Shown: positions 1,286 to 62,104 of the stretch, piece after piece | How the letters are laid out: each line of letters begins with the position of its first letter | Numbering within the stretch: the stretch's first letter is position 1 | NCBI GenBank assembly: GCA_963739435.1 | Contig: CAVUAN010000016.1 | Span: 129,309-193,308, forward strand | Direction: 5' to 3' | Origin: an uncultured Acidobacteriota bacterium | GTDB taxonomy: Bacteria > Acidobacteriota > Thermoanaerobaculia > UBA5066 > Gp7-AA6 | Length of the DNA: 64,000 nucleotides | Made by a program: the position numbers and the translations under genes | The notes under the pieces: generated by a model | What the model was told of the DNA's origin: nothing | The model's input: only the letters and a program-made list of their open reading frames with translations | The model's database searches: none

Positions 1286-1335
1286 GAGCTCCGGGCCCGG
1301 ACCTCGGCAACTGTCGACTCTGAAGGAGGAGTGAA

Positions 1336-2398: not shown

Positions 2399-2490
2399 GC
2401 GCCGGGCGAAATCGTTTGTCGGATTGTGTGTGGGTCGAGCTTAGGGCGGTCATCTCCTCAAAGAGCGTCACGCTGAAGAAGGAATAGGGC

Positions 2491-3204
2491 ATGAGTACGA
2501 AAGAGACGGAGAGCGCAAAGCGAGTCCTCGCGATCGACATCGGCGGGACGAACGTGAAGATCCTCGCGACGGGAGAGCGCGAGCCGCGGAAGTTTCCGTC
2601 CGGCAATGGGTTGACACCCGACCAGATGGTCGCCGGCGTCCGGAAACTGGCCGGAGACTGGAAGTACGACGTGGTCTCGATCGGATATCCGGGTCCCGTC
2701 CTAAGGGGCGGTCCGGCCGCCGAGCCCCACAACCTCGCTCCCGGCTGGGTCGGATTCGACTTCAAAGCCGCCTTCGGACACCCGGTCAGGGTGATCAACG
2801 ACGCGGCGATGCAGGCTCTCGGGAGCTACAAGGGCGGGACGATGCTCTTTCTGGGCCTCGGAACGGGCCTCGGCTCCGCTCTCATCGTGAGAGGACACAT
2901 CGTCCCGATGGAGCTCGGCCACCTCCCCTGGGGGAAAAGAACCTTCGAGGAGTGCCTGGGAGTCCGCGGGCTGGAGAAGCAGGGAAAGAAGGCGTGGCGG
3001 AAGAGCGTCTCGAGGGCCGTGGAACGTTTCACCTCCGCTCTGTTCCTGGACGACGTCGTCATCGGAGGAGGGAACGCGAAGAAGCTGAAGAAACTCCCTC
3101 CTGGCTGCCGGCTCGGCGACAACGCCAACGCTTTCGTGGGGGGCTTCAGCCTCTGGAGAGGAACCAGGAAAGGACGGCACTCGCGCCCCGATACCGGAAG
3201 CTGA
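2491..3204 (+). CDS. ROK-family sugar kinase (glucokinase / polyphosphate-glucokinase-like, short form)
   Basis: 237 aa with N-terminal ATPase motif [13 protein letters not shown], plus [10 protein letters not shown] and [10 protein letters not shown]. No CxCGxxGC zinc motif. First gene of the pentose-phosphate operon. Confidence 0.7.
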
Positions 3205-3256
3205 AGAAGAAAGCGCGTTAACAGGAAAACAAAGGGGGTCGGAAAGGGAGCACACC

Positions 3257-4273
3257 ATGCAACTGGGAATGATCGGGCTCGGACGGATGGGGGCGAACAT
3301 GGTTCGCCGGCTGATCGGCGGCGGCCACGACTGCGTCGTCTTCGACATGTCGCCCGAGGCCGTGGCAGGGCTCGTCAAGGAGAAGGCGGTCGGCGCCTCC
3401 TCTCTCGCCGACTTCGTGAAGAAGCTCGCCAAGCCCCGGGCCGTCTGGCTGATGGTCCCGGCGGCCGTCGTCGACAAGACGATCGCCGACCTCCTGCCGC
3501 TCCTCGAGAAGGGCGACATCCTGATCGACGGCGGCAACTCCTACTACGTCGACGACATCCGCCGTGCGAAGGAGCTCGCGGCGAAGGGCCTCCACTACGT
3601 CGACGTCGGCACGAGCGGCGGCGTCTGGGGCCTCGAGCGGGGCTACTGCATGATGATCGGCGGCGAGACGGATGTCGTGCAGCGTCTCGATCCGATCTTC
3701 AAGCGGCTCGCCCCGGGCCGGGGGGACGTCCCGCGGACGCCGGGACGCGACAAGGCGAAGGGGACGGCGGAGGAGGGCTACCTCCACTGCGGACCGAACG
3801 GCGCCGGCCACTTCGTCAAGATGGTCCACAACGGAATCGAGTACGGCATCATGGCGGCCTACGCCGAGGGGCTCGGCATCCTGCGCGCCGCGAACGTCGG
3901 AAAAGAGGCGCACGCAGTCGACGCGGAGACGACGCCGCTCCGTGATCCCGAGCACTACCAGTACGACCTGAACCTCCCCGACGTCGCCGAGGTCTGGCGG
4001 CGGGGAAGCGTCATCGCGTCGTGGCTTCTCGACCTCACCGCGGCGGCGCTGATCGAGGATCCCGCGCTCGCGAAGTTCGCGGGCCGCGTCTCCGACTCCG
4101 GCGAGGGGCGCTGGACGATCAAGGCCGCGATCGACGAGGCGGTTCCCGCTCCCGTCCTGACGACGGCGCTCTACGAGCGTTTCTCCTCTCGCGGCGAGGC
4201 GGATTTCCAGAACAAGCTCCTCTCGGCGATGCGCTTCGAGTTCGGCGGGCATCTGGAGAAGCCCTCGAATTGA
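3257..4273 (+). CDS. gnd: 6-phosphogluconate dehydrogenase, decarboxylating (short GntZ/YqeC-like form)
   Basis: 338 aa with [15 protein letters not shown] Rossmann motif, then [27 protein letters not shown] and [13 protein letters not shown]. Confidence 0.9.
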
Positions 4274-4283
4274 GGAGAACGAA

Positions 4284-5660
4284 ATGAGTTCACCCCAGTC
4301 GGACGCCCTCGTCTTCTTCGGAGCGACGGGCGATCTCGCCTACAAGATGATCTTTCCGTCGCTCCAGGCGATGCTGAAGCGCGGCCACCTCGACGTGCCG
4401 GTCATCGGGGTCGCAAACGCCGGCTGGAGCCTCGACCAGATGAGGGCGCGCGCGAAGGACAGCCTCGAGAAGCACGGCGGGCTCGACCCCGCCGCCTTCA
4501 CGAAGCTCTCCGGCCTCCTCCGGTACGTCGACGGCGACTACAACAACCCCGAAACGTTCGCAGCGATCAAGAAGCAGGTGGGCACCGCGAGTCGGCCGGC
4601 GCACTACCTCGCCATCCCCCCGGTCCTCTTCGGCAAGGTCGTCGAACAGCTCGGGACGTCGGGCCTCTCGAAGAACGCCCGCGTCATCATCGAGAAGCCG
4701 TTCGGAACGGACCTCGCCTCGGCGAGGGAGCTGAACCGGATCCTCTTCTCGGAGTTTCCGGAGTCGTCGATCTTCCGGATCGACCACTACCTCGGGAAGA
4801 AGCCGGTTCAGGCCGTCCTCGTCTTCCGGTTCGCGAACACATTCATGGAGCCGTTCTGGAATCGGAACTACGTCGAAAGCGTCCAGATCACGATGGCGGA
4901 GGATTTCGGCATCCAGGGGCGGGGCGCGTTCTACGACCAGACAGGGACGATCCGGGACGTCGTTCAGAACCATCTTTTCCAGCTTCTTTGCAACCTGACG
5001 ATGGAGCCTCCCGTCCGGACGGACAGCGAATCGATCCGGGACGAGAAGGTCAAGGTGCTGAAGGCCATCCCGGACCTTGTTCCGGCCGACCTCGTCCGCG
5101 GGCAGTTCACCGGCTTCAAGTCGGAGCCGGGCGTCTCAAGCGAGTCGAAAACCGAGACGTTCGCCGCGCTGAAGCTGGAGATCGACTCGTGGCGCTGGAA
5201 GGGCGTGCCCTTCTACATCCGCGCAGGAAAATCGCTCCCCGTCACCTGCACCGAAGTCCTCGCCCGGCTCAAGAAGCCGCCGACGGTCATCAAGGAGAGC
5301 CTGCTCCACCAGAACACCGTTCGATGCCGGATCAGCCCCGAACCGACCGTCGCCCTCGGCACGATGATCATGGGAGCGTCGGACGAGATGACCGGCGAGA
5401 CGGCGGAGCTGGTGGCGAGCCGCCACCCGGCAGCCGACGAGGCCGACGCCTACGAGCGCGTCCTGACCGATGCGATCGCGGGGGACGCGACGCTCTTCGC
5501 GCGCCAGGACTACGTCGAGGAGGCCTGGCGGATCGTCGATCCCGTCCTGAAGGCAGGGACGCCCGTCTTCGAGTACGCCCCCGGCTCGTGGGGGCCGGCG
5601 GAGGTCGAGGAGCGCCTCACGCCCCCCGGCGGCTGGAATGATCCGAAAGTGGACAGCTGA
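4284..5660 (+). CDS. zwf: Glucose-6-phosphate 1-dehydrogenase
   Basis: 458 aa with [31 protein letters not shown] and RIDHYLGK signature motifs. Confidence 0.92.
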
Positions 5661-5678
5661 GATCCGGGGAGATCAGCA

Positions 5679-6371
5679 ATGAACATCGAGATCCTCGCCG
5701 ACGCCGATGCCGTCGCCCGCCGGGCCGCGTCCTTGATCGCGGGAGAGGCTCGCGCCGCCGTTGCCGCACGGGGAAGGTTCGTCATGGCGGTGAGCGGCGG
5801 AAAGACGCCGTGGGTGATGCTTCGCGCACTCGCGGACGAAGAAGTCCCCTGGCCCTCGGTCCACGTCTTCCAGGTCGACGAGCGGATCGCGCCGGCTGGA
5901 GATCCGGACAGGAACCTGACGCACCTCCGCGAGAGCCTCCTCTCCCGTGCGCCGCTGCCGCCGTCCCAGATTTACGCGATGCCGGTGGAAGCGACCGATC
6001 TCGCCGCGGCCGCAATCGAGTACTCGAAAAGTCTCGAGAAGGTCGCGGCGGCGCCACCGGTCCTCGACCTTGCCCACCTTGGCCTCGGGCCGGATGGCCA
6101 CACGGCCTCCCTGGTGCCCGACGACCCGGTTCTCGGGGTCACCGGGTCCGACGTGGGCCTGACAGGCGTCTACATGGGCCGGCGCCGGATGACGCTCACC
6201 TATCCCGTCCTCGACCGCTCTCGAAAGGTCCTCTGGCTCGTCACCGGCAGCGAAAAGGTCCCCATGCTGAAGCGCCTTCTTGCCCACGACCTGACGATCC
6301 CAGCCGGGCGGGTACGACCGGACAACGCCCTCGTCCTCGCCGACCGCGCTGCGGCCGGAGACGCCGGATAG
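5679..6371 (+). CDS. pgl: 6-phosphogluconolactonase
   Basis: 230 aa with FVMAVSGGKTP, VHVFQVDERIAP and LGLGPDGHTASL motifs. Position between zwf and rpiB fits. Confidence 0.88.
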   Translation: MNIEILADADAVARRAASLIAGEARAAVAARGRFVMAVSGGKTPWVMLRALADEEVPWPSVHVFQVDERIAPAGDPDRNLTHLRESLLSRAPLPPSQIYAMPVEATDLAAAAIEYSKSLEKVAAAPPVLDLAHLGLGPDGHTASLVPDDPVLGVTGSDVGLTGVYMGRRRMTLTYPVLDRSRKVLWLVTGSEKVPMLKRLLAHDLTIPAGRVRPDNALVLADRAAAGDAG

Positions 6372-6871: not shown

Positions 6872-8929
6872 ATGAGCACTCCGAACCTCGAGCAACTGGC
6901 GATCAACACCATCCGGACCCTCTCGATCGACGCGGTCCAGAAGGCGAAGTCCGGCCATCCTGGAACGCCGATGGCCCTCGCGCCGCTCGTCTACACGATC
7001 TGGAACCGGGTGATGAGCTTCGACCCGGAAGACCCGATCTGGCCGAACCGCGACCGGTTCGTCCTGTCGAACGGGCACGCCTCGATGCTCCTCTGGTCGA
7101 TCCTCCACCTGACGGGGGTCAAGGCGGTGAACGCCGATTACGAGCGGCTCGGGCAGCTTTCCGTGACGCTCGACGACATCCGCCGATTCCGCCAGCTCGA
7201 CAGCAAGGCGCCGGGCCACCCCGAGTACCACTGGGTTTCCGGTGTCGAATGCACCACCGGCCCGCTCGGGCAAGGCGTCGCGACCAGCGTCGGGATGGCG
7301 ATCGGCCAGAAGTGGCTCGCCGCGCGCTACAACCGTCCCGGCTTTGACGTCTTCGACTACGGCATCTTCGCCGTCACCGGGGACGGCTGCATGATGGAGG
7401 GGATCGCGTCCGAAGCGGCCTCTCTCGCGGGCCACCTCGGCCTCGACAACCTCTGCTGGATCTACGACAACAACCACATCACGATCGAGGGGTCGACGCG
7501 AATCACCTTCACCGAGGACATCGCGGCGCGCTTTCTCGGCTATGGGTGGAACGTCCTCCGGGTGGGCGACGCGAACGACGTCGACCGGATCCAGGACGCG
7601 CTCGAGGTCTTCCGGAAGACGCCGGGGCGCCCGACGTTCCTGATCCTCGACAGCCACATCGGCTACGGCTCGCCCAACAAGCAAGACACCTCGGCAGCGC
7701 ACGGCGAACCGCTCGGCGACGACGAGGTCCGCCTGACGAAGAAAGCGTACGGATGGCCCGAGGACGCGCAGTTCCTCGTCCCCGACGGCGTCCGCGAGCA
7801 CTTCGCCGCCGGGATCGGCGCCCGCGGCGCCGAGGCCCGGAAGAAGTGGACGGCGATGTTCGCCGCTTACCGCGCCGAGTTTCCCGAACTCGCGGGCGAG
7901 ATCGGCCAGATGCAGGAACGCGAGCTTCCGGCCGGGTGGGACAAGGATCTTCCCGTTTTCGAGGCCGACCCGATGGGGCTCGCCGGCCGGGAAGCTTCCG
8001 GAAAGGTCCTCAACGTTCTCGCCCAGAGCATCCCGTGGTTCCTCGGCGGCTCCGCGGATCTCGGGCCGTCGAACAAGACGACGCTGACCTTCGCGGGGGC
8101 TGGGGACTTCCAGCCCGAAACCCCCGGGGGGAAGAATCTCCACTACGGCATCCGCGAGAACGCCATGGCGGCGACGGTCAACGGCCTCTCGCTCTCGAAG
8201 ATCCGGGCCTTCGGCGCTACCTTCTTCATCTTCAGCGACTACGCCCGCCCCGCCATCCGGCTCTCGGCCCTGATGGAAATCCCTTCCATCTTCATCTTCA
8301 CCCACGACGCCATGGGCGACGGCGAGGACGGCCCGACCCATCAGCCGGTCGAGCAACTGATCTCGCTGCGCGCCATCCCCGGCATGGTCGTGCTGCGGCC
8401 GGGGGACGCCAACGAGGTCGTCGAGGCGTATCGCACCGTCATGCCGCTTCGCCACCAGCCGGTCGTGATGGTTCTGTCGCGCCAGCCGCTCCCGACGCTC
8501 GACCGGAAGAAGTACGCCGCGGCGTCGGGTGTCGCCAGGGGCGCCTATGTCCTCGCCGACGCCCCCGGCGGAAGGCCGGAGGTGATCCTCATCGCGACGG
8601 GGAGTGAGTTGTCCCTCGCCGTCGACGCCCACGAGAAGCTCGTGGCGGAGGGGATCCGTTCCCGCGTCGTGTCGATGCCGTCGTGGGAGCTTTTCGATCA
8701 CCAGCCGAAGGAATACCAGGACGCCGTTCTGCCGCCCGCGGTGAAGGCTCGCGTCGCGGTCGAGCAGGCCTCGATGATCGGGTGGGATCGCTACGTCGGC
8801 TCCGAGGGGCGCGTCGTCGGAATGAAGACGTTCGGAGCGTCCGCGCCTCTGAAGGAGCTGCAGAAGCACTTCGGCTTCGAACCGGAAAAGATCGTTGCCA
8901 TCGCCAGGGAAACACTCGGCAGGAAATGA
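6872..8929 (+). CDS. tkt: Transketolase
   Basis: 685 aa with SGHPGTPMALAP, VLSNGHASMLLWS, GDGCMMEGI and THDAMGDGEDGPTHQPVEQL motifs. Confidence 0.95.
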   Translation: MSTPNLEQLAINTIRTLSIDAVQKAKSGHPGTPMALAPLVYTIWNRVMSFDPEDPIWPNRDRFVLSNGHASMLLWSILHLTGVKAVNADYERLGQLSVTLDDIRRFRQLDSKAPGHPEYHWVSGVECTTGPLGQGVATSVGMAIGQKWLAARYNRPGFDVFDYGIFAVTGDGCMMEGIASEAASLAGHLGLDNLCWIYDNNHITIEGSTRITFTEDIAARFLGYGWNVLRVGDANDVDRIQDALEVFRKTPGRPTFLILDSHIGYGSPNKQDTSAAHGEPLGDDEVRLTKKAYGWPEDAQFLVPDGVREHFAAGIGARGAEARKKWTAMFAAYRAEFPELAGEIGQMQERELPAGWDKDLPVFEADPMGLAGREASGKVLNVLAQSIPWFLGGSADLGPSNKTTLTFAGAGDFQPETPGGKNLHYGIRENAMAATVNGLSLSKIRAFGATFFIFSDYARPAIRLSALMEIPSIFIFTHDAMGDGEDGPTHQPVEQLISLRAIPGMVVLRPGDANEVVEAYRTVMPLRHQPVVMVLSRQPLPTLDRKKYAAASGVARGAYVLADAPGGRPEVILIATGSELSLAVDAHEKLVAEGIRSRVVSMPSWELFDHQPKEYQDAVLPPAVKARVAVEQASMIGWDRYVGSEGRVVGMKTFGASAPLKELQKHFGFEPEKIVAIARETLGRK

Positions 8930-9861
8930 CCATGTCCCTCGCGTCATTCTCACGCCTCCTCGACGATCCACGGGCGCGGGCGCTCGCATCCGGGGACACT
9001 TCGGCCGTCTTTCTCCCGAGCCGCGGGATGCTCGGAGCTTCTCTTCGCCACCGCGGGGTCGAGATTCTCCGGCGCGTCGAAGACCTCGAGGCCGCTGCGG
9101 CGAAAGGGTCGACGGCCGGGATCCCACTCCTCCACCCGTGGGCGAACCGGCTCGCGGGCCTCCGTTACTGCGCTGCGGGAAAGGAAACGATCCTCGACTC
9201 GGCGTCCTCTCTTCTCCACCTCGACGAGCACCGCCTGCCGATGCACGGGGTCCCGTGGTCCCGCCTGGCGTGGAGCGTGGCGGACGCGGCGCCCGAGAGC
9301 GTCTCGGCGACGCTCGACTGGTCCCACCCCGATCTCCTCGCCGTCTTCCCCTACACGCACGAGTTGAAGATGACGGCGACTCTCCGTCCCGGGGCGCTGA
9401 CGATCGAGACGACGCTCGTGGCCGGCAGCAGTCCTGTCCCCGTCAGCTTCGGCTTTCACCCTTACGTCGGCCTGCCGGACGTCCCGCGCAGCGAGTGGAA
9501 GCTGCGGCTCCCGGCCATGAGGCACCTCGTTCTGGACGAAAACGGCATCCCGACCGGAGAGGAAGTTCCGTTCCTAGCCGTCGACGCCCCGCTCAACGAC
9601 CGAGCCTACGACGACGGCTTCGCGCTTCTCGAGGCGTCCCCGTCGTTTTCCGTCGAGGGAGGCGGCCGCCGGGTGACGGCGGAGTTCGTTTCCGGATTCG
9701 GGTTCGCGCAGGTCTTTGCTCCCAGGGGGAAGGAGTTTGTCGCCTTCGAACCGATGACGGCGCCGGCCAACGCGCTCGTCAGCGGCCGCGGCCTCTCCGT
9801 CGTCGAGCCCGGAGGCGAGTGGCACACCGCGTTCCGGCTCCGGGTTGAGGAGCTCTCGTGA
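8926..9861 (+). CDS. Aldose 1-epimerase (galactose mutarotase-like) family protein
   Basis: ~311 aa. The ATG at 8926 overlaps the tkt stop (ATGA); the alternative ATG is at 8932. Motifs: LLHPWANRL, LPMHGV, FGFHPYV and AFEPMTAPANAL. Confidence 0.75.
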   Translation: MTMSLASFSRLLDDPRARALASGDTSAVFLPSRGMLGASLRHRGVEILRRVEDLEAAAAKGSTAGIPLLHPWANRLAGLRYCAAGKETILDSASSLLHLDEHRLPMHGVPWSRLAWSVADAAPESVSATLDWSHPDLLAVFPYTHELKMTATLRPGALTIETTLVAGSSPVPVSFGFHPYVGLPDVPRSEWKLRLPAMRHLVLDENGIPTGEEVPFLAVDAPLNDRAYDDGFALLEASPSFSVEGGGRRVTAEFVSGFGFAQVFAPRGKEFVAFEPMTAPANALVSGRGLSVVEPGGEWHTAFRLRVEELS

Positions 9862-9883
9862 CGACACCAGGAAGGAGACCTGA

Positions 9884-12609
<2,726 letters not shown>

Positions 12610-12610
12610 A

Positions 12611-14758
12611 ATGAGTTCCCTTGCACCGAACGTGCGCGGCGTCGACGCCCCGGGCCGACGCACGGTGTACAGCATGTGCGGCATGTGCGCGGTCCGTTGC
12701 CCGATGGAAGTGACGGTCGAGGACGGCCGGATAGCCTGGCTCCAGGGCAATCCGCGCGACGAGGCCATCGGCGCGAGCCTCTGCGCGAAGGGTTCAGCCG
12801 GGCTGTCCTTCGAGTTCGACGACCAGCGGCCCCAGACACCGCTCCTCCGGACCGGCCCGCGGGGCAGCGGCCAGTGGCGCCGGGCATCCTGGGACGAGGC
12901 CCTCGACACCATCGCCGGGAAGTTGAAGGAGACGATCGAGGCTTTCGGAGGGCGCGGCATCGTCCTGTCCGATCGCGGCGGCCCCTTCACCGACCTGACG
13001 AAGACCTTCGTGCAGGCGCTCGGCTCGCCGAACTATTTCAACCACGACGCCTCCTGCAACGGGAACGCTCACAATGCCGGCCGCTCGATCTACGGCTTCG
13101 GCACCACCGGGCTCGTCTTCGATCTCCCGAATACGAAGCACCTCGTGCTCTACGGCCGCAACATCGTCGAGTCGCTGATGGTCAAGGAGGCCAAAGCCTT
13201 CATGGCCGCCGTGGCGAAGGGGATGCGCGTTACCTACATCGACCCGCGCGCCACCGTCACGGCCTGCAAAGCCACCCGTTACTGGCAGGTGCGCCCGAAC
13301 AGCGACTATGCGTTGAACCTCGCGATCATCCACGAAGTCCTGAAGACGGAGGCGTACGACAAGGACTTCGTCGAGCGCTTCGTCACCGGAATGGAGTCCC
13401 TTCGCGCGGCGGTCAGGGACACGACGCCCGAATGGCAGGAGAGCCATACCGGCGTTCCCGCCGCCGAGCTCCGGGCCTTCGTGAAGGAGATCGCCGCCGA
13501 ACGACCGCGCGTGATCTTCCATCCGGGCTGGATGTCCGCGCGCCACAAGCAGTCCTTCTATGTCAGCCGCAGCGCTCTGATCCTGAATGCCCTGATGGGC
13601 AACATCGAGATTCCGGGTGGCTGCGTGATGGCCAAGCCGCCCGAGTTCTACGGCCGCAAGAGCCTGAAACCGCTGACGGCGCGCGTGCCCAGGGTCGCCG
13701 AGCCTCGCGTGGACGGCGCCGGCACCACCCGGCCGTCGTGGGACCCGGCGGTCGGCATGCTGCACCAGGCGTTCGCCGCGATGGAAACCTCGCAGCCCTA
13801 TGGCGTCGGCGCCTACTTCGCCTACCGCCACGATCCACTCACCGGGATGCCCGATGCCGAGGCGATCAAACGCGCGCTGGACAAGCTGAAGCTCCTCGTC
13901 TCGATCGACGTCCGCTACTCGGAGACGGGCTGGTACTCCGACGTCATCCTCCCGGAGTCGACCTACCTCGAACGTGCCAACGTCCTGGCCGGCTTGCCCG
14001 GCCCGGTCCCGGTGTTCTTCATGCGCGACCAGGCGATCGCGCCGCGCTTCGACAGCCGCCCTGCATGGTGGATCTTCCGCGAGATCCTGCGCCGCTTGGA
14101 CGTGAAGGAAGCTCTCGATTTCGAGACCATCGAGGAAATCTGGGACTACCAGCTCGAGGGCACGGGCGTCACCATCGCCGAGATTCGCGAGGCCGGGTTC
14201 GTCCGTCTTGCCGACACGCCGAAGCTGACGCCGCGCGACAAGCTCAGGTTCCCGACCCCCTCGGGCAAGATCGAGATCGAGAGCGATGTCCTGAAGAAGG
14301 CCGGGCTGGCCAGCCTGCCGCCTTACGAGCCGAAGGCGCCGCCGGCAGGCGACCAATTCACTCTGCTGTTCTCGAAGACCGCGACGCTGGCGCACGGCCA
14401 GTCCCTCAACAACCCGCTCCTCAACGAGATCGCGCCGGAACAGGTGCTCTGGATCCACCCCGACCGCGCCCGGCCGCTGGGGATCAGCGACGGGGACGAG
14501 GTCGAGATCAGCGGGGGTGGGTCCTACGTCGGAAGGATGAAGGCGAGGGTGACGCCCTGGATCCACCAGGAGGCGGTGTTCATGCTGCACGGCTACGGGG
14601 CCACCGTGCCGCTCGCCACGCGCGCACTCGGCGTCGGTGTTGCCGACCAGCGTCTGCAGCACGGCAAGCTCTACGACTTCGACCCGGCCGGAGGCGGCTG
14701 CGCCCTGACGGAGACCGTCGTTCGGGTCAGGCCCGCGGCGGCGGAGGTGAGGCCGTGA
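12611..14758 (+). CDS. Molybdopterin (Mo/W-bisPGD, DMSO-reductase superfamily) oxidoreductase catalytic subunit, cytoplasmic type
   Basis: 715 aa from ATG 12611. N-terminal [4Fe-4S] motif CGMCAVRCP-x27-CAKG (C-x2-C-x3-C-x27-C). No twin-arginine signal and no in-frame TGA. Psr/Phs-like overall pattern. Substrate unknown. Confidence 0.85.
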   Translation: MSSLAPNVRGVDAPGRRTVYSMCGMCAVRCPMEVTVEDGRIAWLQGNPRDEAIGASLCAKGSAGLSFEFDDQRPQTPLLRTGPRGSGQWRRASWDEALDTIAGKLKETIEAFGGRGIVLSDRGGPFTDLTKTFVQALGSPNYFNHDASCNGNAHNAGRSIYGFGTTGLVFDLPNTKHLVLYGRNIVESLMVKEAKAFMAAVAKGMRVTYIDPRATVTACKATRYWQVRPNSDYALNLAIIHEVLKTEAYDKDFVERFVTGMESLRAAVRDTTPEWQESHTGVPAAELRAFVKEIAAERPRVIFHPGWMSARHKQSFYVSRSALILNALMGNIEIPGGCVMAKPPEFYGRKSLKPLTARVPRVAEPRVDGAGTTRPSWDPAVGMLHQAFAAMETSQPYGVGAYFAYRHDPLTGMPDAEAIKRALDKLKLLVSIDVRYSETGWYSDVILPESTYLERANVLAGLPGPVPVFFMRDQAIAPRFDSRPAWWIFREILRRLDVKEALDFETIEEIWDYQLEGTGVTIAEIREAGFVRLADTPKLTPRDKLRFPTPSGKIEIESDVLKKAGLASLPPYEPKAPPAGDQFTLLFSKTATLAHGQSLNNPLLNEIAPEQVLWIHPDRARPLGISDGDEVEISGGGSYVGRMKARVTPWIHQEAVFMLHGYGATVPLATRALGVGVADQRLQHGKLYDFDPAGGGCALTETVVRVRPAAAEVRP

Positions 14759-15270
14759 GCACCTACATTCTGCGGCACGACGAGCCGAACTGCATCGGCT
14801 GCCACGCCTGCGAAGTGCACTGCAAGACCAACAAGGACCTCGGCCCCGGCCCGGCCCCGTGCAAGATCATCACCGTCGGTCCGGTCGACGTCGGCGGCCG
14901 GCCCCGCATGCGCTTCGCCTTCTTGCCCTGTTTCCATTGTGAGGATGCGTGGTGCATGAGGGCCTGCCCGACCGGGGCCATGCAGAAGCGTCAGAAGGAC
15001 GGCATCGTCTTCGTCCAGTCCGTCCTGTGCATCGGCTGCAAGAGCTGCATCGCCGCGTGCCCCTGGGGCACGCCGCAGTGGGATCCGGCCACGAAGAAGG
15101 TGGTCAAGTGCGATTACTGCATGGATCGCCTCGATGCGGGGCTGCAGCCGGCCTGCGTGACGAAGTGCGTGACCGGCTGCCTGTCCTTCGGCGTCGCGAA
15201 CGAGCTGCCGGACCCGCGTCGCGAGCGTTATGCCCGCCAGCTCCTCGCCGATCCCCTGGAAGGAGCCTGA
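14755..15270 (+). CDS. 4Fe-4S ferredoxin-type electron-transfer subunit (PsrB/DmsB-like, four cluster motifs)
   Basis: 171 aa with a GTG start overlapping the upstream stop (GTGA). Motifs: CIGCHACEVHC, CFHCEDAWCMRACP, CIGCKSCIAACP and CDYC...C...C. Confidence 0.85.
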   Translation: MSTYILRHDEPNCIGCHACEVHCKTNKDLGPGPAPCKIITVGPVDVGGRPRMRFAFLPCFHCEDAWCMRACPTGAMQKRQKDGIVFVQSVLCIGCKSCIAACPWGTPQWDPATKKVVKCDYCMDRLDAGLQPACVTKCVTGCLSFGVANELPDPRRERYARQLLADPLEGA

Positions 15271-15279
15271 GGAGGAGCC

Positions 15280-18264
15280 ATGAGCGAACTCCGAGCGCTG
15301 CCGGCCTGGCTCGACGCAGGCGCTGCCGCGCTGGCGGGCGCCGCGCCGCCGGCGCCGACCCTGGCCGGTGCGCTGCCGGGCCTCGACCGGGCCCATTCCC
15401 TGACGCCTCTTCAGCGGCTGCACCGCGTGCAGGAATCGGCCCTCACCGAGTGCGGCGGTGCCGGCGAGCCCGTCCATCTCGCCTGGCGCCAGTTCCTGCG
15501 CGGCCGCGGGCCTTCGGTGCTGGTGATCGACGCGACCCAACTCGACGTGCGGGCACGCGGCACGGCCGCCGTTCTCGACAGCGCTCCCTGGCTGGTGGCC
15601 GAGGGCGTGCTGATCGCCGCCGGCCTGCGCGACAGCCTCGAGGCCGAGCTGCGCCTGCCGGCCGAGCTGAATGGCCATGAAGCGGCCTTCCTGAATGCAG
15701 CCGACGCCGTCCGGTCGCTCGCTCAGGTCGCGATTCCCCGCCGCAAGGTCGAGGTGCTGCGCAACAGCCGGCCGAGCTGCTGGGGAGAGAGACAGACCAC
15801 CGACGGGTCGCGGCTGATCCACACCCCGGAAACCTGGTGCCGGATCGCCCTGTTGTTTGCCGGCGCTTCGGGCCTCGACGCGTCGCTGCTGACGCTGCGG
15901 CGCGGCATGGAGCAGCGCGGCCTGGTCGAGCTCGCGCATTCCGAGAACCTGCGAAGCCAGATCGACGGCTGGAGCGGCGGCGTCGAGGTGCAAGGACAGG
16001 AAGCCACGCTCGTCTTCGACGACGGCCTGGGCGGTTTCCTGCCGCTTTCCGCCTCGGATCTCGCCTCCGATCCTCTGTCTCTCGCGTCCGCGGGAATCGT
16101 CCCGGCGCCGTCCACCCTCATGGCTATGGCCGAGGGCGTCTGCGTGGTCAAGCAGACCGGGCGTGCGCTCTATCGCCACTGGCAGCTTGCACCAGAAGCG
16201 GCGCCGGTGCGCGGATTGCTGGCGCGCGCCGCGCGTCTCGTGACCGAGATCACTCTCGGTCGGGGCGAGGCCGCACATCTCGCCGCCCTGGACGAAGTGG
16301 CCCTCGAACTCTCCACACAGGGGCTGGCGGCCGCGTGGCCGCTCGGCAGCTCCCTGCGCCACTACCGCGAGCAGTGGGAGAGCCACGTCCGGCGGGAGTC
16401 CTGCCCGGAGGGGCTCTGCCTTTCGCCGCGGGCCGCGCCCTGCCACAACACCTGTCCGGCCAACATCGACATCCCGAGCTTCATCGCCCACCTGGGCCAC
16501 GGCGACTATCGCTCGACCATCGAGGTGATCCGCCGCGACAACCCGCTGCCGCTGACTTGCGGTCTCGTCTGCCCGGCGCCGTGCGAATCCGCCTGCGTGC
16601 GCGGCGGCAGCAACGGGGCCGTCTTCATCCGGCCGCTGAAGGCCAAGGCGGCCGAGCACTGCCTCGCCGAGGGCGGCTACCCGAAACCCGAGATCGCGCC
16701 CGATACCGGCAAGCGCATCGGCATCGTCGGGTCCGGCCCGGCCGGCCTCACGGCGGCCTATTACCTGCGCACCCGCGGTCATCAGGTCGAGATCTTCGAG
16801 GCGCAGGAGAAGGCCGGGGGCATGCTGCGCTACGGCATTCCGGCCTATCGTCTGCCGCCCGACATGCTGGACCAGGAGATCGACCAGATCCGCGTGCTGG
16901 GAATCCCGATCCATACCGGCGCCCCGGTCGGCAGCCTCGAGGCGTTCCGCAAGGGCTACGACGCCGTGTTCCTCGGGCTCGGCACCCAGAAGTCGCGCCT
17001 CATCCAGGTCGACGGCGTCCAGCAACCCTTCGTCCTCGGCGGCATCGACTTCCTGCGGAGGGTGCGAAGCGGCGAACAGGTTCGGGTTGGGCCGCGGGTC
17101 GCCGTCATCGGCGGCGGCGACGTTTCCATCGACGTCGCCTTGACGGCGTTGCGGCAGGGCGCGAAGCACGTCGACCTGACCTCCCTCGAGAAGCAGCGCG
17201 AGATGCCGGCCAGCCCCCACGAGATCGAGCTCGCGGTTGCCGAAGGAGTCGAGCTGCACGCGGGCTGGGGCCCGGTGCGCATCGAAGAGGATGGCGAGGT
17301 GACCTTCCAGTTCTGCGAGCGGGTCAAGGACGAGACCGGCAAGTTCGACCCGAAATTCGACGCCGCCCGACTGCTGAAGCTCGAAGCCGACCACGTCATC
17401 CTCGCCACGGGCCAGGGCACCGACCTGACGATTCTCGAAGGCAGCGGAGTCGAAAGTGCGCGCGGCTTCATCGTTGCGGACCCGAAGACCCTGATGACCA
17501 ACGTTCCGGGCGTGTTCGCCGGCGGAGACGGGCAGCAAGGCCCGCGCACGGCCGTGGAGGCGATCCGCGCCGGCAAGATCGCCGCGGCCGGCATCGACGC
17601 CTGGCTGCGCGGGGCGGCGATGGACGCCGCCACCGGCAAGCCGGTGCGCCGCGCGGAGGTCGCTCTCCTACCGGTGTTGGCGCACGATCGCACCCGCCTG
17701 CCCCGTGCCGTCATGCCCGAGAGGAGCGTCGAAGAGGTCCTCGGCGAGGGCAACTACGTCCGGATCGAGGAGGGCCTGACCGACGCGATGGCGCACGATG
17801 AGGCCCGCCGCTGCCTGCGCTGCGACATCTGCATCGGCTGCGGCCTGTGCATGGCCACGTGCAGCGAGATGGGGATCGAGGCCCTGCGCATGGCCGACAC
17901 GCCGGCCGGCCGCCTCGCCTACTTCGATTTCCTGCGCCCCGCGGAGCGGTGCATCGGCTGCGGCGCCTGCACGCAGGTCTGCCCGACGGGAGCGATCCGC
18001 ATCGAGGACCGAGACGGCGTGCGGCGCACGATCATCACGGGAACCGTCGTGCGAGAACAGCCGCTACTCTCCTGCAGCGACTGTGGTGCGCCGACGCAGA
18101 CGCCTGCGCACCGGGAGTTCGTCCGCCGCCGCCTGCCGGATCACATGGCGTTTCTCTTGCATCGCGAGCTCTGCCCGTCCTGCGCGCGCGCGCGGGGCGA
18201 TCGTCCCTCAGTGGAGTCAGCCACGTTGAGGCGGGCCACGTTAATAGCAGGAGATAACCAATGA
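15280..18264 (+). CDS. Large NAD(P)H-flavoprotein/Fe-S fusion (GltD-like core with C-terminal 2x[4Fe-4S]; YgfK-like architecture)
   Basis: 994 aa.
- Residues ~380-450: GltD-type Fe-S region (CHNTCPANIDIP...NPLPLTCGLVCPAPCESAC).
- FAD motif IGIVGSGPAGLTAAYYL and second dinucleotide motif VAVIGGGDVSIDVA.
- C-terminal CLRCDICIGCGLC and CIGCGACTQVCP, then a CxxC...CxxC ribbon.
- First ~375 aa carry no recognisable cofactor motif. Confidence 0.75.
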   Translation: MSELRALPAWLDAGAAALAGAAPPAPTLAGALPGLDRAHSLTPLQRLHRVQESALTECGGAGEPVHLAWRQFLRGRGPSVLVIDATQLDVRARGTAAVLDSAPWLVAEGVLIAAGLRDSLEAELRLPAELNGHEAAFLNAADAVRSLAQVAIPRRKVEVLRNSRPSCWGERQTTDGSRLIHTPETWCRIALLFAGASGLDASLLTLRRGMEQRGLVELAHSENLRSQIDGWSGGVEVQGQEATLVFDDGLGGFLPLSASDLASDPLSLASAGIVPAPSTLMAMAEGVCVVKQTGRALYRHWQLAPEAAPVRGLLARAARLVTEITLGRGEAAHLAALDEVALELSTQGLAAAWPLGSSLRHYREQWESHVRRESCPEGLCLSPRAAPCHNTCPANIDIPSFIAHLGHGDYRSTIEVIRRDNPLPLTCGLVCPAPCESACVRGGSNGAVFIRPLKAKAAEHCLAEGGYPKPEIAPDTGKRIGIVGSGPAGLTAAYYLRTRGHQVEIFEAQEKAGGMLRYGIPAYRLPPDMLDQEIDQIRVLGIPIHTGAPVGSLEAFRKGYDAVFLGLGTQKSRLIQVDGVQQPFVLGGIDFLRRVRSGEQVRVGPRVAVIGGGDVSIDVALTALRQGAKHVDLTSLEKQREMPASPHEIELAVAEGVELHAGWGPVRIEEDGEVTFQFCERVKDETGKFDPKFDAARLLKLEADHVILATGQGTDLTILEGSGVESARGFIVADPKTLMTNVPGVFAGGDGQQGPRTAVEAIRAGKIAAAGIDAWLRGAAMDAATGKPVRRAEVALLPVLAHDRTRLPRAVMPERSVEEVLGEGNYVRIEEGLTDAMAHDEARRCLRCDICIGCGLCMATCSEMGIEALRMADTPAGRLAYFDFLRPAERCIGCGACTQVCPTGAIRIEDRDGVRRTIITGTVVREQPLLSCSDCGAPTQTPAHREFVRRRLPDHMAFLLHRELCPSCARARGDRPSVESATLRRATLIAGDNQ

Positions 18265-18310
18265 AAGTCATCGTCGGCGACAGATTCTAAAGTCGGTAGA
18301 ATGCCGCCCG

Positions 18311-18786
18311 ATGAGCGCGTACGCCGCGGCGATGTGGGGCGGGCTTGCCGCGGCTTCGCTGCTGCTCGGCGCGGCGCTCGCCCTGCGGTGGTCGCTCTCG
18401 GAGCGGCTCGTTGGCGCCATCATGGGATTCGGGTCCGGCGCGCTCATCAGCAGCATCGCCTACGAGCTCGTGCCGGAATCGAAAGTCGCCGGCGGCGGGC
18501 GATGGATCGTCTTCGCCTTCGCCCTGGGCGCGCTGGTCTTCTTCGTCGCCGACTGGGCGATCGACCACAGCGGGGGCGCCGAGCCACGGGCGGGGGGTCG
18601 GGCACCGCGATCTTCCTCGGAACGCTGCTCGACGGCCGGTAAGCCAGGGCCTTCTCTGCGGGAGCTGTTCTGACGATGCTCTCCGACGTCATGATGCCGG
18701 AGGCGTTCGAGCACGGCGGCAAGCTCGTCGGACTGCTGGCCACGCTGGGCTTTCTGGCCGCGGCGATCCTGTCGGTGATGGAATAA
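18311..18786 (+). pseudogene. ZIP-family metal transporter remnant (frameshift, in-frame stop and internal deletion)
   Basis: The N-terminus (MSAYAAAMWGGLAAASLLLGAALA...FFVADWAIDH) shifts frame near the G-run at ~18575-18600 to ...GTAIFLGTLLDG. A TAA follows at 18640-18642. The same frame then continues AFSAGAVLTMLSDVMMPEAFEHGGKLVGLLATLGFLAAAILSVME. Roughly 100 central residues expected for this family are missing. Confidence 0.7.
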
Positions 18787-18825: not shown

Positions 18826-21021
18826 TTACTGCTGATGCGCCAGCATTTCGGCGAACCGGTCGCTCCCGGTGACGGGCAGAAGCTCGGTCAGCTCCTGGGC
18901 GTGTGCGAAATCCGCTTCGAAAAGTTCCCGCTTCATCTGGCCCACGAACGTCGGGTCCGCCGTCGCCACGTCGGTTTCGTCGTTCGTCCGTAGCGACAGC
19001 TTGTTGAAGTTGCAGGAGCCGAGGATGGCCCAGCCGTCGACGATCGCCGCCTTCGTGTGCATCATTCCCGGAAACGCGTAGACGCGTATTCCGTTCTGCA
19101 ACAGCCGGTTCGCCTTGACCTTGTTGTTGCTGTCCGATGTGTCCATGTCGGCCTGGGAGGGCATCACGACGCGCACGTCCACGCCGCGCCGCCGGGCCGC
19201 GATGAGGGCACGGATCACGGTGTCGTCGTAGATGTATGGGTTCGAGATCCACGCATACCGCCGGGAGCGGCCGAGCGCCTCGCACAGGTACCGAAGAACG
19301 ACCGGGTTGAGCGTCTTCGTGTAGATCGGGCGTATGTCGACGTAGTCCTCCCGCTCGGCCGGTCCTTCGTAAGCCTTGGGCTGGGCGAGGTAGGTGGCGG
19401 CGTAGGCCAGGTCTCCGAGGATGGACGCGTGGCTCCAGGCGAGCTCGAAGTCGCGTTCGAGCCAGCCGACGATCGGCCCCTCGAGCTCCGCCATCACGTC
19501 GTGCCACTCGTACCGGTACTCGAAGCCGGCGTTCATCCCCCCGACGTAGGCGTACTTTCGGTCGACGATGTACACCTTCGAATGGTCCCCCATCGTCACG
19601 GAGTTCAGGAAGTTGCGGACATGAACCCTCGAGCCGTCCCGTAGGTAGGGCTGGATGGCCCTTGGCGGCTTGAAGTCTTCGGGCTGCGGCGTCTGGGGAG
19701 ACACCATGCTCGCGTCGAGGGAGGTCACGCGGTCGATGACGACCCGGCTGTCAGGAATCTGCAGCGACCGCTGGCGCACCCTATCGGCAAGCTCCACGCC
19801 GAAGGAGTCGGTGTCCCAGATGCAGACCCGAAAGTGAAGGGACTGCTGGGCCTCGGCGATCCGGCGCTCGAGCAGGGGAAAAAAATTGGAACCGTCGACG
19901 ATGAGACGGATCGAGCCCCGGTAGCGCCGGGACCCCATCATCGAATCGAGCTTAGCCTCGAAGGCTGGCAGGTCCATCCCCGGCCCATCGGTCACGACGG
20001 GCGGGATTTCCGGGGCCGGCCATCTCCTCTTGCGCAGCATCACGCGGACGGTCTGCAGGCCGAAGTTGACGGCCCGGCCTACGAAGGAAACCGGGTTCTT
20101 GACGAACGCAAGGAGCTGGCCCTCGATGACGGCCGCCTCGACCATGCGCCAGGTCTTTCCCGAGGCGGCTGCCTCGCTCGCGACGTCGGCCGAGCCGGGC
20201 GACAGCGTGAAGGCCATGACGTTCTGATCGAGGTCGAAGACGAGGAAGGTCGGGGGCTTCCCCTCGCGCGCGTTGACGACGACGAACAAACCGTGGGAAT
20301 CGCCCTTTTCGCGCAGGGACTCCGCGATGACATCGAAGAGGATGCGGCCGAACTGCGTCAGGTCCATGCGGTGGCCGATGTGGACGTCCTTTGGCACCTC
20401 GGCGGCCGGAGCGATCTGCGCGCCGCCCGTAGCCTCGCGGTACGCTACGAATTCGCGGCTCCCGATGCCGACGAAGACTCCCTCGCCCGGGGCGCTGCCG
20501 GACAAGAGCTTTCCGGCCACTTTCGGGAGCAGGACCTGGAACTGCTCGGCCGAAACGACCGTCGCCTCGCGGACGGAAGCCTGCATCTGCTCGATTCCCT
20601 TGGGGACCTCCTCGACGAGCTCCAGTTGTGTCGTCCGAAATCTGACCTTCTGGCCCTCTTCGAGGACGTTGGCCTTCCAGCTGGCTTTGAAGACGGTCTT
20701 CTTGCCGTCTTCCGGAAAGAGCAGGATCAGGTGATTGTGGTAGACGAAGGCGCGCAGCGTGGGCCGGGGCGGCAGGGCCAGGAGCGCGCTCCGCGTGGCG
20801 GCGTCGCTGACGACGTGACTGCACCCGGCGGTGACGAAGATAGCGAGCAGGAGCCCGGCAGCACGCGCGGTTCTCTCGGTCTTCCGCCTCAAGTTTCGAC
20901 CTCCCGATCCACCCTGAGCCACAAGCGAAAGCCGAGCCCTTCGCAGCATCTGCGCGACGCCCGTCGGGACCCTTCGACGGGCTTCGGCCGTCTCATCCGA
21001 GACCACATTCTGCCATGGCAT
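18826..21021 (-). CDS. PLD-superfamily (two HKD motifs) lipoprotein with ~330-aa N-terminal domain of unknown function
   Basis: 731-aa ORF with lipobox ...LLLAIFVTAGCS. HKD motifs HSKVYIVDRKYAYVGGMN and HTKAAIVDGWAILGSCNFN. The start may be the internal Met at 20949 (MLRRARL...). Confidence 0.8.
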   Translation of the reverse strand: MPWQNVVSDETAEARRRVPTGVAQMLRRARLSLVAQGGSGGRNLRRKTERTARAAGLLLAIFVTAGCSHVVSDAATRSALLALPPRPTLRAFVYHNHLILLFPEDGKKTVFKASWKANVLEEGQKVRFRTTQLELVEEVPKGIEQMQASVREATVVSAEQFQVLLPKVAGKLLSGSAPGEGVFVGIGSREFVAYREATGGAQIAPAAEVPKDVHIGHRMDLTQFGRILFDVIAESLREKGDSHGLFVVVNAREGKPPTFLVFDLDQNVMAFTLSPGSADVASEAAASGKTWRMVEAAVIEGQLLAFVKNPVSFVGRAVNFGLQTVRVMLRKRRWPAPEIPPVVTDGPGMDLPAFEAKLDSMMGSRRYRGSIRLIVDGSNFFPLLERRIAEAQQSLHFRVCIWDTDSFGVELADRVRQRSLQIPDSRVVIDRVTSLDASMVSPQTPQPEDFKPPRAIQPYLRDGSRVHVRNFLNSVTMGDHSKVYIVDRKYAYVGGMNAGFEYRYEWHDVMAELEGPIVGWLERDFELAWSHASILGDLAYAATYLAQPKAYEGPAEREDYVDIRPIYTKTLNPVVLRYLCEALGRSRRYAWISNPYIYDDTVIRALIAARRRGVDVRVVMPSQADMDTSDSNNKVKANRLLQNGIRVYAFPGMMHTKAAIVDGWAILGSCNFNKLSLRTNDETDVATADPTFVGQMKRELFEADFAHAQELTELLPVTGSDRFAEMLAHQQ

Positions 21022-27681: not shown

Positions 27682-27714
27682 ACACTCGTCCGCGCAGAGC
27701 GCGGTTCGGATGCG

Positions 27715-27740
27715 GAAGGCCGCCCGGCCGGGCGGCCTTC
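27715..27740 (+). terminator. GC-rich perfect hairpin downstream of the DUF1269 gene
   Basis: gaaggccgccc-ggcc-gggcggccttc: an 11-bp perfect stem with a 4-nt loop, 34 nt after the stop at 27681. No U-tract follows. Confidence 0.55.
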
Positions 27741-27786
27741 TGGCGATCCGCGTGTCTCGACGGCTGGGAAGCTACGAAGTGATCCC

Positions 27787-36017: not shown

Positions 36018-36091
36018 GGTCCCCGCGCAGAGTCTCGGCTTGCGAGGAGCGGTTTTGGCGATATAGTCACGACGTCGAATAAGGAGAAGCC

Positions 36092-38367: not shown

Positions 38368-38394
38368 GGGGCAGGCGGTGCCCGGAGATCGCCC

Positions 38395-39480: not shown

Positions 39481-39504
39481 GATCCACCCCGGAGGAAGCG
39501 ACCC

Positions 39505-51806: not shown

Positions 51807-51810
<4 letters not shown>
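49891..51810 (-). CDS. DASS-family (SLC13/CitT-like) di/tricarboxylate transporter, read in-frame with a 171-aa N-terminal signal-peptide/beta-domain segment
   Basis: 639-aa ORF. From Met172 (ATG 51297) the sequence is typical DASS: ...WFWPVPEGLTAPAWHLFAIFAATIGSVI..., SDTARSG and TPQASSAN hairpin motifs. Residues 1-171 form a signal peptide plus a beta-rich domain containing ITGGTGRFAGLHG. ATG 51810 overlaps the aspA stop (ATGA). Confidence 0.8.
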
Positions 51811-53221
<1,411 letters not shown>

Positions 53222-60427: not shown

Positions 60428-60437
60428 GATAGAGAAG

Positions 60438-60463: not shown

Positions 60464-60475
60464 TGAGAAGTTTGC

Positions 60476-62104
<1,629 letters not shown>

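Follow-up and report, generated by a model that had tools for sequence, protein, structure and literature searches.

We analysed a 64,000-nucleotide (nt) stretch of contig CAVUAN010000016.1 from an uncultured Acidobacteriota bacterium (the window, taken at its full length) and, within it, a triad of genes predicted to encode a molybdenum- or tungsten-dependent oxidoreductase. The three genes lie on the forward strand and are as tightly packed as an initial annotation, made from the sequence alone, had described them. Gene A (12611..14758; 715 amino acids, aa) starts with the ATG at 12611, preceded by the Shine-Dalgarno-like GGGAAGGAG, and ends with the TGA at 14756-14758. The GTG start codon of gene B (14755..15270; 171 aa) overlaps this stop in the GTGA at 14755-14758, and gene C (15280..18264; 994 aa) begins with an ATG at 15280 after a spacer of 9 nt that contains GGAGGAG. 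No convincing terminator was found downstream of C. Just 3' of C, short open reading frames (ORFs) of 113-120 aa at 18301-18673 (+) match no family and lack homologues in the related loci.

The product of A contains the Pfam domains Molybdop_Fe4S4, Molybdopterin and Molydop_binding, and its reading frame, without an internal stop, has no in-frame TGA. The expected C-x2-C-x3-C-x27-C motif is present as CGMCAVRC...27...C and, as the FS0 motif, starts at C23. The absence of a twin-arginine (Tat) leader was likewise confirmed, with 22 residues before the first Cys and no hydrophobic h-region. This short N-terminus is common to approximately 120 homologues, whereas distant Tat-bearing relatives have leaders of 40-60 residues with RRxFL and a hydrophobic stretch. 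An N-terminal "GRR" was rejected as a possible cryptic Tat motif, since it lies 5 residues before the Cys motif and lacks a hydrophobic stretch.

Polysulfide reductase PsrA from Thermus thermophilus (2vpw) is the best PDB match of A (E = 2e-102, aligned end to end), followed by acetylene hydratase (E = 1.5e-50). Cys149, which the initial annotation had singled out as candidate metal ligand in NHDASC149NGNAH, aligns with PsrA Cys173, which we take to be the Mo ligand in the 2vpw structure. It is conserved in the A family and in the sister clade described below, and is thus the predicted Mo ligand of A. Among NCBIfam models PhsA matches best, with 488 bits against an equivalog cut-off of 694 (NF012032), and the other models of the MopB superfamily (Fdh, DmsA, NasC, ArrA, TtrA, NapA, NarG) score far below PhsA, for example Fdh-alpha with 190 bits (cut-off 666), NasC with 151 bits (cut-off 1100), a second assimilatory nitrate reductase model (NasC/NasA) with 69 bits (cut-off 1000) and ArrA with 133 bits. 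On these scores assimilatory nitrate reductase, formate dehydrogenase, DMSO/TMAO reductase, arsenate reductase and tetrathionate reductase were all rejected as identities of A, which appears to be a Tat-less PsrA/PhsA-like catalytic subunit outside any clade of known function.

The second gene had been described as encoding a four-cluster ferredoxin of the PsrB/DmsB type, and our results agree. Its 18 Cys residues fall into four CxxC...C...C groups, Pfam returns Fer4_11 (E = 6e-25), and the best NCBIfam matches are DmsB (130 bits) and NrfC (108 bits), both below cut-off, with TtrB also among them. B is therefore best read as an electron-transfer subunit of this type with four predicted [4Fe-4S] clusters.

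The third protein, C, is a fusion of three parts, of which the initial annotation had recognized the GltD-like part and the additional Fe-S motifs and had left the N-terminal domain undescribed. The GltD/NfnA-like module (16402..17649, +; residues ~375-790) comprises Fer4_20 (E = 4e-20) and Pyr_redox_2 (E = 7e-27), with the FAD fold marked by GSGPAG, the NAD(P)H fold by GGGDVSID, and two predicted [4Fe-4S] clusters; its cysteines and GxGxxG motifs are invariant across the C family. It is followed by a 2x[4Fe-4S] ferredoxin domain and a CxxC...CxxC pair (together 17797..18183, +; residues ~840-968; Fer4_7, Fer4_9, Fer4_21). The ferredoxin cysteines C845...C861 and C891...C901 (residues ~840-910) would bind two [4Fe-4S] clusters, and the pair C932, C935, C965 and C968, 3' of the ferredoxin motifs, is conserved as well; the family alignment contains both invariant and nearly invariant cysteines. 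Comparison with the YgfK, AegA and GltD models gave matches to all three, albeit below the cut-offs (YgfK 282 bits), and a score of 498 bits with PRK12771. In PDB searches the middle of C most resembles the N-terminal, GltD-like region of NfnA/StnA (E = 1e-86 to 1e-90; NfnA 9n5u_A, 2e-90). Foldseek with an AlphaFold2 model of C also placed NfnA of NfnABC (9bov_A, 9n5u_A) and StnA (8oh5_C) on top, a result that is dominated by the GltD-like domain and says nothing on the NuoF-like fold alone; the model, built from a 59-sequence alignment, has a pLDDT of 59.6 with unmodelled Fe-S regions, and a single-sequence model reached a pLDDT of 36. The Y-R-R motif after the second strand of an NADPH fold contacts the 2'-phosphate of the nucleotide, and it is seen in all NADPH-binding relatives in our alignments of C. 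In 114 of 118 C family members S-L-(E/D) followed by K-R-R stands in its place, and the window copy reads S-L-E-K-Q-R (17185-17196; residues 636-639), with Q for the first R of K-R-R. Because Y-R-R is replaced, NADPH and NADH cannot be told apart as the donor from the sequence of C.

The N-terminal part of C (15367..16419, +; residues ~30-380) is a relic NuoF/HydB-like domain, detected with phmmer against PDB and with the NCBIfam model nuoF_fam. The best PDB matches are HydB (8a6t_B, E = 8.5e-14, residues 203-380) and NfnB/StnB (9bov_B and 8oh5_B, ~1e-10), weaker matches of the NuoF/HydB/NfnB type cover residues 30-127, and nuoF_fam aligns with residues 209-370 at 34.5 bits, far under its cut-off of 559 bits. 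The likeness is recognizable across the FMN, SLBB and helical domains, and the GGAGxP..W loop is retained. All four cysteines of the N3 cluster are lost, as ESCGKCxPCREG aligns with QLAPEAAPVRGL, and so is the acidic motif of the FMN/NADH site, where ADEGDPGAF aligns with ATQLDVRAR. Mean column conservation across the family is nevertheless 0.84 in this domain against 0.85 in the FAD domain, so that the relic must be under selection for some role. Two unusual relatives of C were also encountered. In Allochromatium warmingii DSM 173 (L078:10672-12855) C measures just 727 aa and most of the NuoF-like domain is absent, a natural truncation that could show whether this domain is needed. The metagenomic protein P0274 (1707 aa) combines a C-like sequence with a lactonase domain of the seven-bladed type; it is probably a merged call across a frameshift, although it could represent a real fusion of sugar and redox modules.

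A scan of one genome per species across 185,579 species returned 428 related stretches, and the locus analyses reported here refer to the best 80 of these 428, with 72-92% identity to A. According to their record titles, these 80 loci belong to about ten phyla: the closest are from Acidobacteriota, and the others from Chloroflexota, Actinomycetota (many of them Solirubrobacterales), Bacteroidota and Ignavibacteria, Gemmatimonadota, Planctomycetota, Dormibacterota, Alpha-, Beta- and Gammaproteobacteria, and Desulfosarcina. Two Chromatiaceae isolates, A. warmingii DSM 173 and Thiorhodococcus mannitoliphagus DSM 18266, carry the triad. Conservation of the triad across genomes had been named as a check on the initial annotation, and the order A-B-C is kept in all those of the 80 loci that have enough DNA, with identities of 63-95% for B and 70-93% for the flavin module of C, and a correlation of r = 0.94 between the pairwise distances of A and C. 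The observation that C occupies the position of the membrane-anchor gene of Psr/Phs operons extends to all of these loci. The guanine-plus-cytosine (GC) content of the triad exceeds that of its flanks by 3-17 percentage points in almost every locus, as in a Desulfosarcina contig (0.647 versus 0.474), Ignavibacteria (0.66 versus 0.57) and Bacteroidales (0.52 versus 0.45); L045, L010, L006 and L022 are examples of such skewed loci. Together with inter-phylum identities of ~80%, this pattern points to horizontal spread of the putative cassette among about ten phyla, from a high-GC source and with partial amelioration. A search of the PLSDB plasmids found no close copy of A, only enterobacterial phsA at ~32% identity. 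In an exhaustive search among 1.8 billion representative proteins the identity to A falls from at least 72% straight to 48% at the next full-length relative, and no curated model or source gives members of the A and C families a more specific name than "molybdopterin-dependent oxidoreductase" or "FAD-dependent oxidoreductase". The A family is present in at least several hundred species, including common lineages of soil, wetland and wastewater.

This next relative of A, P0122 (704 aa, without a leader, 48% identity), belongs to the clade that is nearest in the 1.8-billion-protein search, whose members are 47-50% identical to the triad family in A and 52-56% in B. Its hosts, among them Desulfocapsa sulfexigens, Dissulfurimicrobium hydrothermale, Desulfurivibrio, Thiovibrio, Thermodesulfatator and Desulfolithobacter dissulfuricans, are sulfur-disproportionating or related Desulfobacterota and Thermodesulfobacteria; the D. 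dissulfuricans protein BCO08636.1, annotated as thiosulfate reductase, is 47% identical to A. The catalytic subunit of this PhsAB-like clade (~705 aa) is Tat-less and has the FS0 motif and the Cys ligand of A. In Desulfocapsa and Dissulfurimicrobium it is followed by a four-cluster B of 150 aa (the B proteins that are 52-56% identical to ours), with a 4-nt overlap that recalls the overlapping A-B pair of the triad, and these loci hold neither a C-like gene nor a membrane subunit. The PhsAB-like clade thus lacks C, whereas the triad always includes the fused, predicted NAD(P)H-oxidizing subunit; the triad family also stands apart as a very tight clade of its own, with at least 72% identity, and is found in other phyla and beside sugar genes. 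Given the identities of 47-50%, it is a sister clade of the PhsAB-like enzymes and not a member. PhsAB lacking subunit C was described by Hashimoto et al. 2022 (PMC9751629), and PhsAB is stated in the literature to have had no functional analysis so far (PMC9751629; PMC13490349). Proteomics of Dissulfuribacter thermophilus in 2026 found a cytoplasmic PhsAB-like enzyme, whose electron source was merely guessed, among the proteins most increased during thiosulfate disproportionation (PMC13490349). We place this enzyme in the sister clade because the D. thermophilus proteins are stated to be >60% identical to those of D. dissulfuricans (PMC13490349). Our literature search found no description of a PsrA/PhsA-type enzyme joined to a GltD/NuoF-type subunit, and the survey of the MopB superfamily (PMC10100899) makes no mention of such an NAD(P)H-linked, GltD-joined PsrA/PhsA clade. 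The cytoplasmic location of a PhsAB-type enzyme is therefore already known, and it is the fused subunit for NAD(P)H input that is new.

In the window, A-B-C form the end of a same-strand string of genes, glk-gnd-zwf-pgl-tkt-epimerase-GH63, that corresponds to an oxidative pentose-phosphate operon. Pfam matches, given here with stop-to-stop limits on the forward strand, so that each true start is somewhat further in, identify a ROK kinase (2488-3204), 6-phosphogluconate dehydrogenase (3089-4273), glucose-6-phosphate dehydrogenase (G6PD; 4161-5660), 6-phosphogluconolactonase (5661-6371) and transketolase (6872-8929). They are followed by an aldose 1-epimerase or mutarotase (8932..9861, +; Aldose_epim E = 1e-18, delimited by frame and third-position GC analysis) and by a broken glycoside hydrolase of the GH63/MGH1-like type (9872..12609, +; Pfam MGH1-like_GH and Glyco_hydro_63, tblastn), the stop of which is 1 nt from the start of A. 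Alignment by tblastn with the intact copies of L019 and L082 showed that this GH63 gene is split by at least four frame changes (frames 2, 3, 1, 3, 1), while it is still 59-76% identical to intact homologues of ~900 aa. It looks like a recent pseudogene rather than a random assembly error, since the neighbouring long genes (transketolase, A and C) are intact, although indel errors are possible.

To describe the neighbourhood elsewhere, all ORFs of the 80 loci were clustered and the two nearest genes on each side were scanned against Pfam. At least one gene for GH63, glucose dehydrogenase, lactonase or G6PD lies within 8 kb in 58 of the 80 loci. The most frequent is an MDR-type dehydrogenase with the C-terminal domain of archaeal glucose dehydrogenase (Glu_dehyd_C, E = 5e-62), present in 46-48 loci at 62-87% identity, followed by a GH63/MGH1-like glycosidase of ~900 aa (34 loci), an SMP-30-type gluconolactonase (at least 20 loci) and a seven-bladed lactonase (10-16 loci); G6PD lies directly upstream of the triad in Thiorhodococcus and one Pirellulaceae genome, and GH15/trehalase-like enzymes and GlgX are occasional neighbours. 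The order of the sugar genes is permuted, being GH63-glucose dehydrogenase (GDH)-A-B-C in one Ignavibacteria genome, A-B-C-GDH-lactonase in Solirubrobacterales and A-B-C-GH63-lactonase-GDH-MIP-GlgX in a gammaproteobacterial genome. The glucose dehydrogenase and A show correlated pairwise distances (r = 0.88). This is compatible with co-inheritance, but a host phylogeny common to both would produce such a correlation too. Sugar genes are missing from 22 of the 80 loci, mostly betaproteobacterial, and the betaproteobacterial loci carry a TtrSR-like sensor and a TauE permease instead. A divergent two-component system occurs in 10-13 loci, with TtrS (317 bits, below cut-off) and FixJ/TtrR as best models. 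A DUF8269+TauE permease is encoded directly upstream of A in 8 Rhodocyclaceae-type loci, and a protein of the same type is found upstream in Desulfocapsa; the idea that TauE neighbours are widespread across phyla was rejected, as they are confined to these loci and the upstream gene elsewhere encodes G6PD or ion channels. In Thiorhodococcus a SulP permease gene lies downstream of the triad. An NrfD/PhsC-type or cytochrome-b-type anchor is absent from the most frequent neighbour families of the 80 loci (two nearest ORFs on each side), a result that leaves room for a rare single occurrence, and no membrane anchor is encoded within 10 kb in the fully annotated L081 and L082. A ~350-aa gene was also seen directly 3' of C in Thiorhodococcus (L074:13589-14635, +) and in a deltaproteobacterial metagenome-assembled genome (MAG; L017:13579-14640, +); the L074 copy has no Pfam match, and by tblastn this gene is unrelated to the glucose dehydrogenase.

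Given these features, a predicted NAD(P)H/FAD site, up to nine [4Fe-4S] clusters distributed over C, B and A, and a Cys-ligated bis-pyranopterin guanine dinucleotide (bisPGD) site can be aligned into one putative electron path. We propose that A, B and C form a single soluble, cytoplasmic oxidoreductase of three subunits. The FAD in the GltD/NfnA-like part of C would oxidize NAD(P)H, and the electrons would pass through the two GltD-type [4Fe-4S] clusters to the C-terminal 2x[4Fe-4S] domain. From there they would move along the four B clusters to FS0 in A and finally reduce an acceptor at the Cys149-ligated Mo/W-bisPGD centre. Complex formation, the direction of electron flow, the substrate and the physiological role are all inferred here from sequence and gene context. 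The initial annotation had proposed a soluble NAD(P)H-linked molybdoenzyme for an oxyanion or a sulfur or selenium compound, and the general part of this proposal is supported, as none of the three contrary findings it had named turned up: A falls inside no clade of known function, being below the PhsA cut-off and far below those of the Nas, Fdh, Dms, Arr and Ttr models, neither a Tat leader nor an NrfD/PhsC-type subunit was found among the genes scanned in homologous loci, and the triad is conserved. We hold it likely that A-B-C encode a soluble NAD(P)H-linked reductase.

Gene context refines the substrate and favours a sulfur compound together with a link to glucose oxidation. The acceptor would most likely be an inorganic sulfur compound, with thiosulfate or polysulfide/sulfane sulfur favoured and tetrathionate possible, because of the homology pattern, the proteomics of the sister clade and the TauE, TtrSR-like and SulP neighbours. 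The complex may serve as a non-respiratory sink in which NAD(P)H from adjacent sugar dehydrogenases is re-oxidized independently of the quinone pool during glucose or glycogen use. G6PD and 6-phosphogluconate dehydrogenase would be the sources in the window, and in most other hosts an archaeal-type glucose 1-dehydrogenase would take their place. The role is suggested by how often the triad is linked to sugar dehydrogenases that produce NAD(P)H and whose products lactonases pull forward. Such a role has a precedent in Thermotoga maritima, where a cytoplasmic polysulfide/thiosulfate reductase that uses NAD(P)H serves as an electron sink in the fermentation of carbohydrate (PMC9431562). For the reductase with both a sulfur substrate and a sugar-linked sink role we see about even chances. 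Several points weigh against it. Thiosulfate reduction has an E0' of about -402 mV (quoted in PMC13490349) and would be slightly uphill from NAD(P)H, so that low product levels would be needed, and the replacement of Y-R-R leaves the preference for NADH or NADPH undecided. The sister PhsAB-like enzymes are themselves uncharacterized (PMC9751629), the conserved relic NuoF-like domain has no explanation in the scheme, and many hosts are soil Actinomycetota, Acidobacteriota and Chloroflexota that are not known for sulfur reduction. Only a minority of loci encode TauE, TtrSR or SulP beside the triad, and the MIP channels of 11 loci and the SBF/ACR3-like carriers of 2 loci would be compatible with metalloid substrates as well. 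In the window GH63 is no longer intact, and the sugar genes may be linked to the triad through shared regulation within a stress or osmotic island and not through electron coupling. We put forward only tentatively, and consider rather doubtful, the further idea that the triad with a GH63/GH15 glycosidase, archaeal-type glucose dehydrogenase and lactonase constitutes a self-contained, horizontally mobile "sugar-to-sulfur" redox cassette.

Other substrates and other directions of electron flow have to be weighed against this sulfur reductase. The same soluble NAD(P)H-driven complex might reduce an oxyanion of selenium, arsenic, antimony or tellurium and act as a horizontally mobile detoxification reductase comparable to SrrA and ArrA of the same MopB lineage. 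The PsrA/PhsA/SrrA lineage borders on Arr/Arx, both having Cys as ligand (PMC10100899), the YgfK model matched by C below cut-off is that of a "putative selenate reductase subunit", and the tight conservation and the GC-skewed island resemble the spread of resistance genes. The MIP channel immediately 3' of the triad in Bacteroidales loci and the SBF/ACR3-like carriers could be read in the same way; in the fullest context, however, MIP stands among sugar genes (the gammaproteobacterial order given above), none of the loci showed ars, ter or selenium genes, and A has no close homologue on any PLSDB plasmid. As the nearest clade is that of the sulfur disproportionators and the ArrA model gives only 133 bits, a metalloid substrate appears unlikely. 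An organic substrate tied to the neighbouring sugar genes, such as an organosulfur or sugar-derived molecule, would account for carbohydrate enzymes being the most widespread neighbours, and MopB enzymes acting on organic substrates exist, namely acetylene hydratase (the second-best PDB match) and transhydroxylases. Yet A is far more similar to PsrA than to acetylene hydratase, the linked genes include none for a dehydratase, an aldolase or a sulfo-sugar pathway, and the betaproteobacterial loci are entirely without sugar genes, which makes this explanation highly improbable.

The complex may also run in reverse, with A oxidizing a low-potential donor (sulfite, as in SoeAB, or another) and C reducing NAD(P)+. 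The potential of the sulfite/sulfate couple lies well below that of NAD(P)+, GltD/NfnA-type modules are reversible, and the permease adjoining the triad in some loci belongs to the TauE/SafE "sulfite exporter" family; SoeA, which faces the cytoplasm, oxidizes sulfite (as cited in PMC9324843). We nonetheless consider reverse operation quite unlikely, since A groups with PsrA/PhsA and not with SoeA/bSreA (a grouping based on NCBIfam and PDB matches, which include no SoeA), the hosts are mostly heterotrophs, and dehydrogenases that produce NAD(P)H, with their products pulled by lactonases, better suit a consumer of NAD(P)H. Flavin-based bifurcation or confurcation, in which the NuoF-like and GltD-like fusion would couple NAD(P)H to the low-potential thiosulfate couple plus a second partner of higher potential or ferredoxin, is suggested by both halves of C being closest to the A and B subunits of the bifurcating NfnABC/Stn/HydABC, by the strong constraint on the NuoF-like domain and by the thiosulfate couple lying below NAD(P)H. 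That domain, however, lacks the N3 cysteines and the acidic FMN/NADH motif and is truncated in A. warmingii (727 aa), and neither a linked NuoE-like subunit nor a second nucleotide site could be recognized, so that we regard bifurcation as very unlikely.

Compared with known systems, the proposed sulfur reductase resembles PsrABC (T. thermophilus 2vpw, Wolinella) and PhsABC (Salmonella) in its MopB subunit, Cys ligand, four-cluster B and A-B order. Those enzymes are Tat-exported, face the periplasm and are driven by quinol via an NrfD- or cytochrome-b-type anchor, whereas the triad has neither Tat leader nor anchor, scores below the PhsA cut-off and has NAD(P)H as its predicted donor. In the Bfu-type transhydrogenases NfnABC/StnABC and in HydABC the NuoF- and GltD-like parts are separate modules, whereas C unites them in one chain in which the NuoF-like cluster and nucleotide motifs are lost and no NuoE-like subunit accompanies them; the partner of C is also the predicted active MopB enzyme A, in contrast to the cofactor-less NuoG-like domain of those complexes. 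The layout of AegA, a DmsB-like four-cluster domain followed by a GltD-like domain, is reproduced by B and the middle of C, but the triad scores far below the family cut-offs of Escherichia coli AegA, YgfT and YgfK, and those proteins are not paired with a PsrA-like subunit. T. maritima Npsr and archaeal NSR have the same proposed function, that of soluble NAD(P)H polysulfide/thiosulfate reductases (PMC9431562), although they are not homologous, being single flavoprotein disulfide reductases without molybdenum or Fe-S chains. NasC/NasA and NAD-dependent formate dehydrogenase share the design of a cytoplasmic MopB subunit with a pyridine-nucleotide flavoprotein and differ in MopB clade and flavoprotein module. 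Cytoplasmic PhsAB-like and NAD(P)H-linked MopB enzymes are thus known in outline and the triad is not a new category; what is new is a predicted enzyme of the PsrA/PhsA lineage in which a fused relic-NuoF/GltD/ferredoxin subunit replaces the anchor, and also its very tight, widely transferred clade with a recurrent tie to glucose-oxidizing genes.

Cytoplasmic, anchor-less PhsAB-type enzymes are abundant in proteomes and are a puzzle of sulfur disproportionation, and the triad represents a natural version with a built-in pyridine-nucleotide input, and hence a directly testable enzyme, two cultured hosts of which, A. warmingii DSM 173 and T. mannitoliphagus DSM 18266, are open to genetics. It also illustrates a redox "construction kit" in which a gutted NuoF domain has been re-used and fused to a GltD module. 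If sulfur compounds are reduced, surveys restricted to dsr or to membrane-bound psr/phs would underestimate the potential for sulfide formation and for cryptic sulfur cycling. If the sugar-to-sulfur idea were true, heterotrophs of many phyla could dump electrons from stored or imported glucose on cytoplasmic thiosulfate, polysulfide or sulfane sulfur, and hosts including Acidobacteriota, Chloroflexota, Actinomycetota, Bacteroidota and purple sulfur bacteria would form sulfide without a respiratory chain, a route of sulfidogenesis hidden from dsr/psr/phs marker surveys. It would also fill two gaps, the enzyme long missing from sulfur reduction at the expense of glycogen in Chromatiaceae and the missing kind of electron input to cytoplasmic PhsAB enzymes.

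Some further genes recur near the triad or accompany it in the window. DUF308 (HdeD-like) membrane proteins and PLD-like proteins are found by the triad in unrelated hosts, in the window at 1324-1908 (+), 18826-21021 (-) and 27682-29292 (+), and elsewhere at L082:6447-7904, 8306-8806 and 9368-9940 and L081:2990-3535. In L082, a gammaproteobacterial MAG, DUF308 lies directly upstream of A and a DUF1269 gene is also located upstream, and in some loci ion channels, an Na+/H+ exchanger or a universal stress protein are encoded beside the triad, together hinting at a stress or osmotic island. The window also encodes a DASS-family Na+:sulfate symporter with an N-terminal extension of ~220 aa (49891-51951, -), an OprO/P-type anion porin (59159-60475, -) and a sulfatase (60476-62179, -), and a sulfatase occurs near the triad in L082 as well; a link of symporter, porin and sulfatase to sulfur supply is possible. 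At 36083-40719 (+), two DUF3300 paralogues (36083-37387 and 39481-40719) are located on either side of a gene of the Na+/Ca2+ exchanger family (38368-39480).

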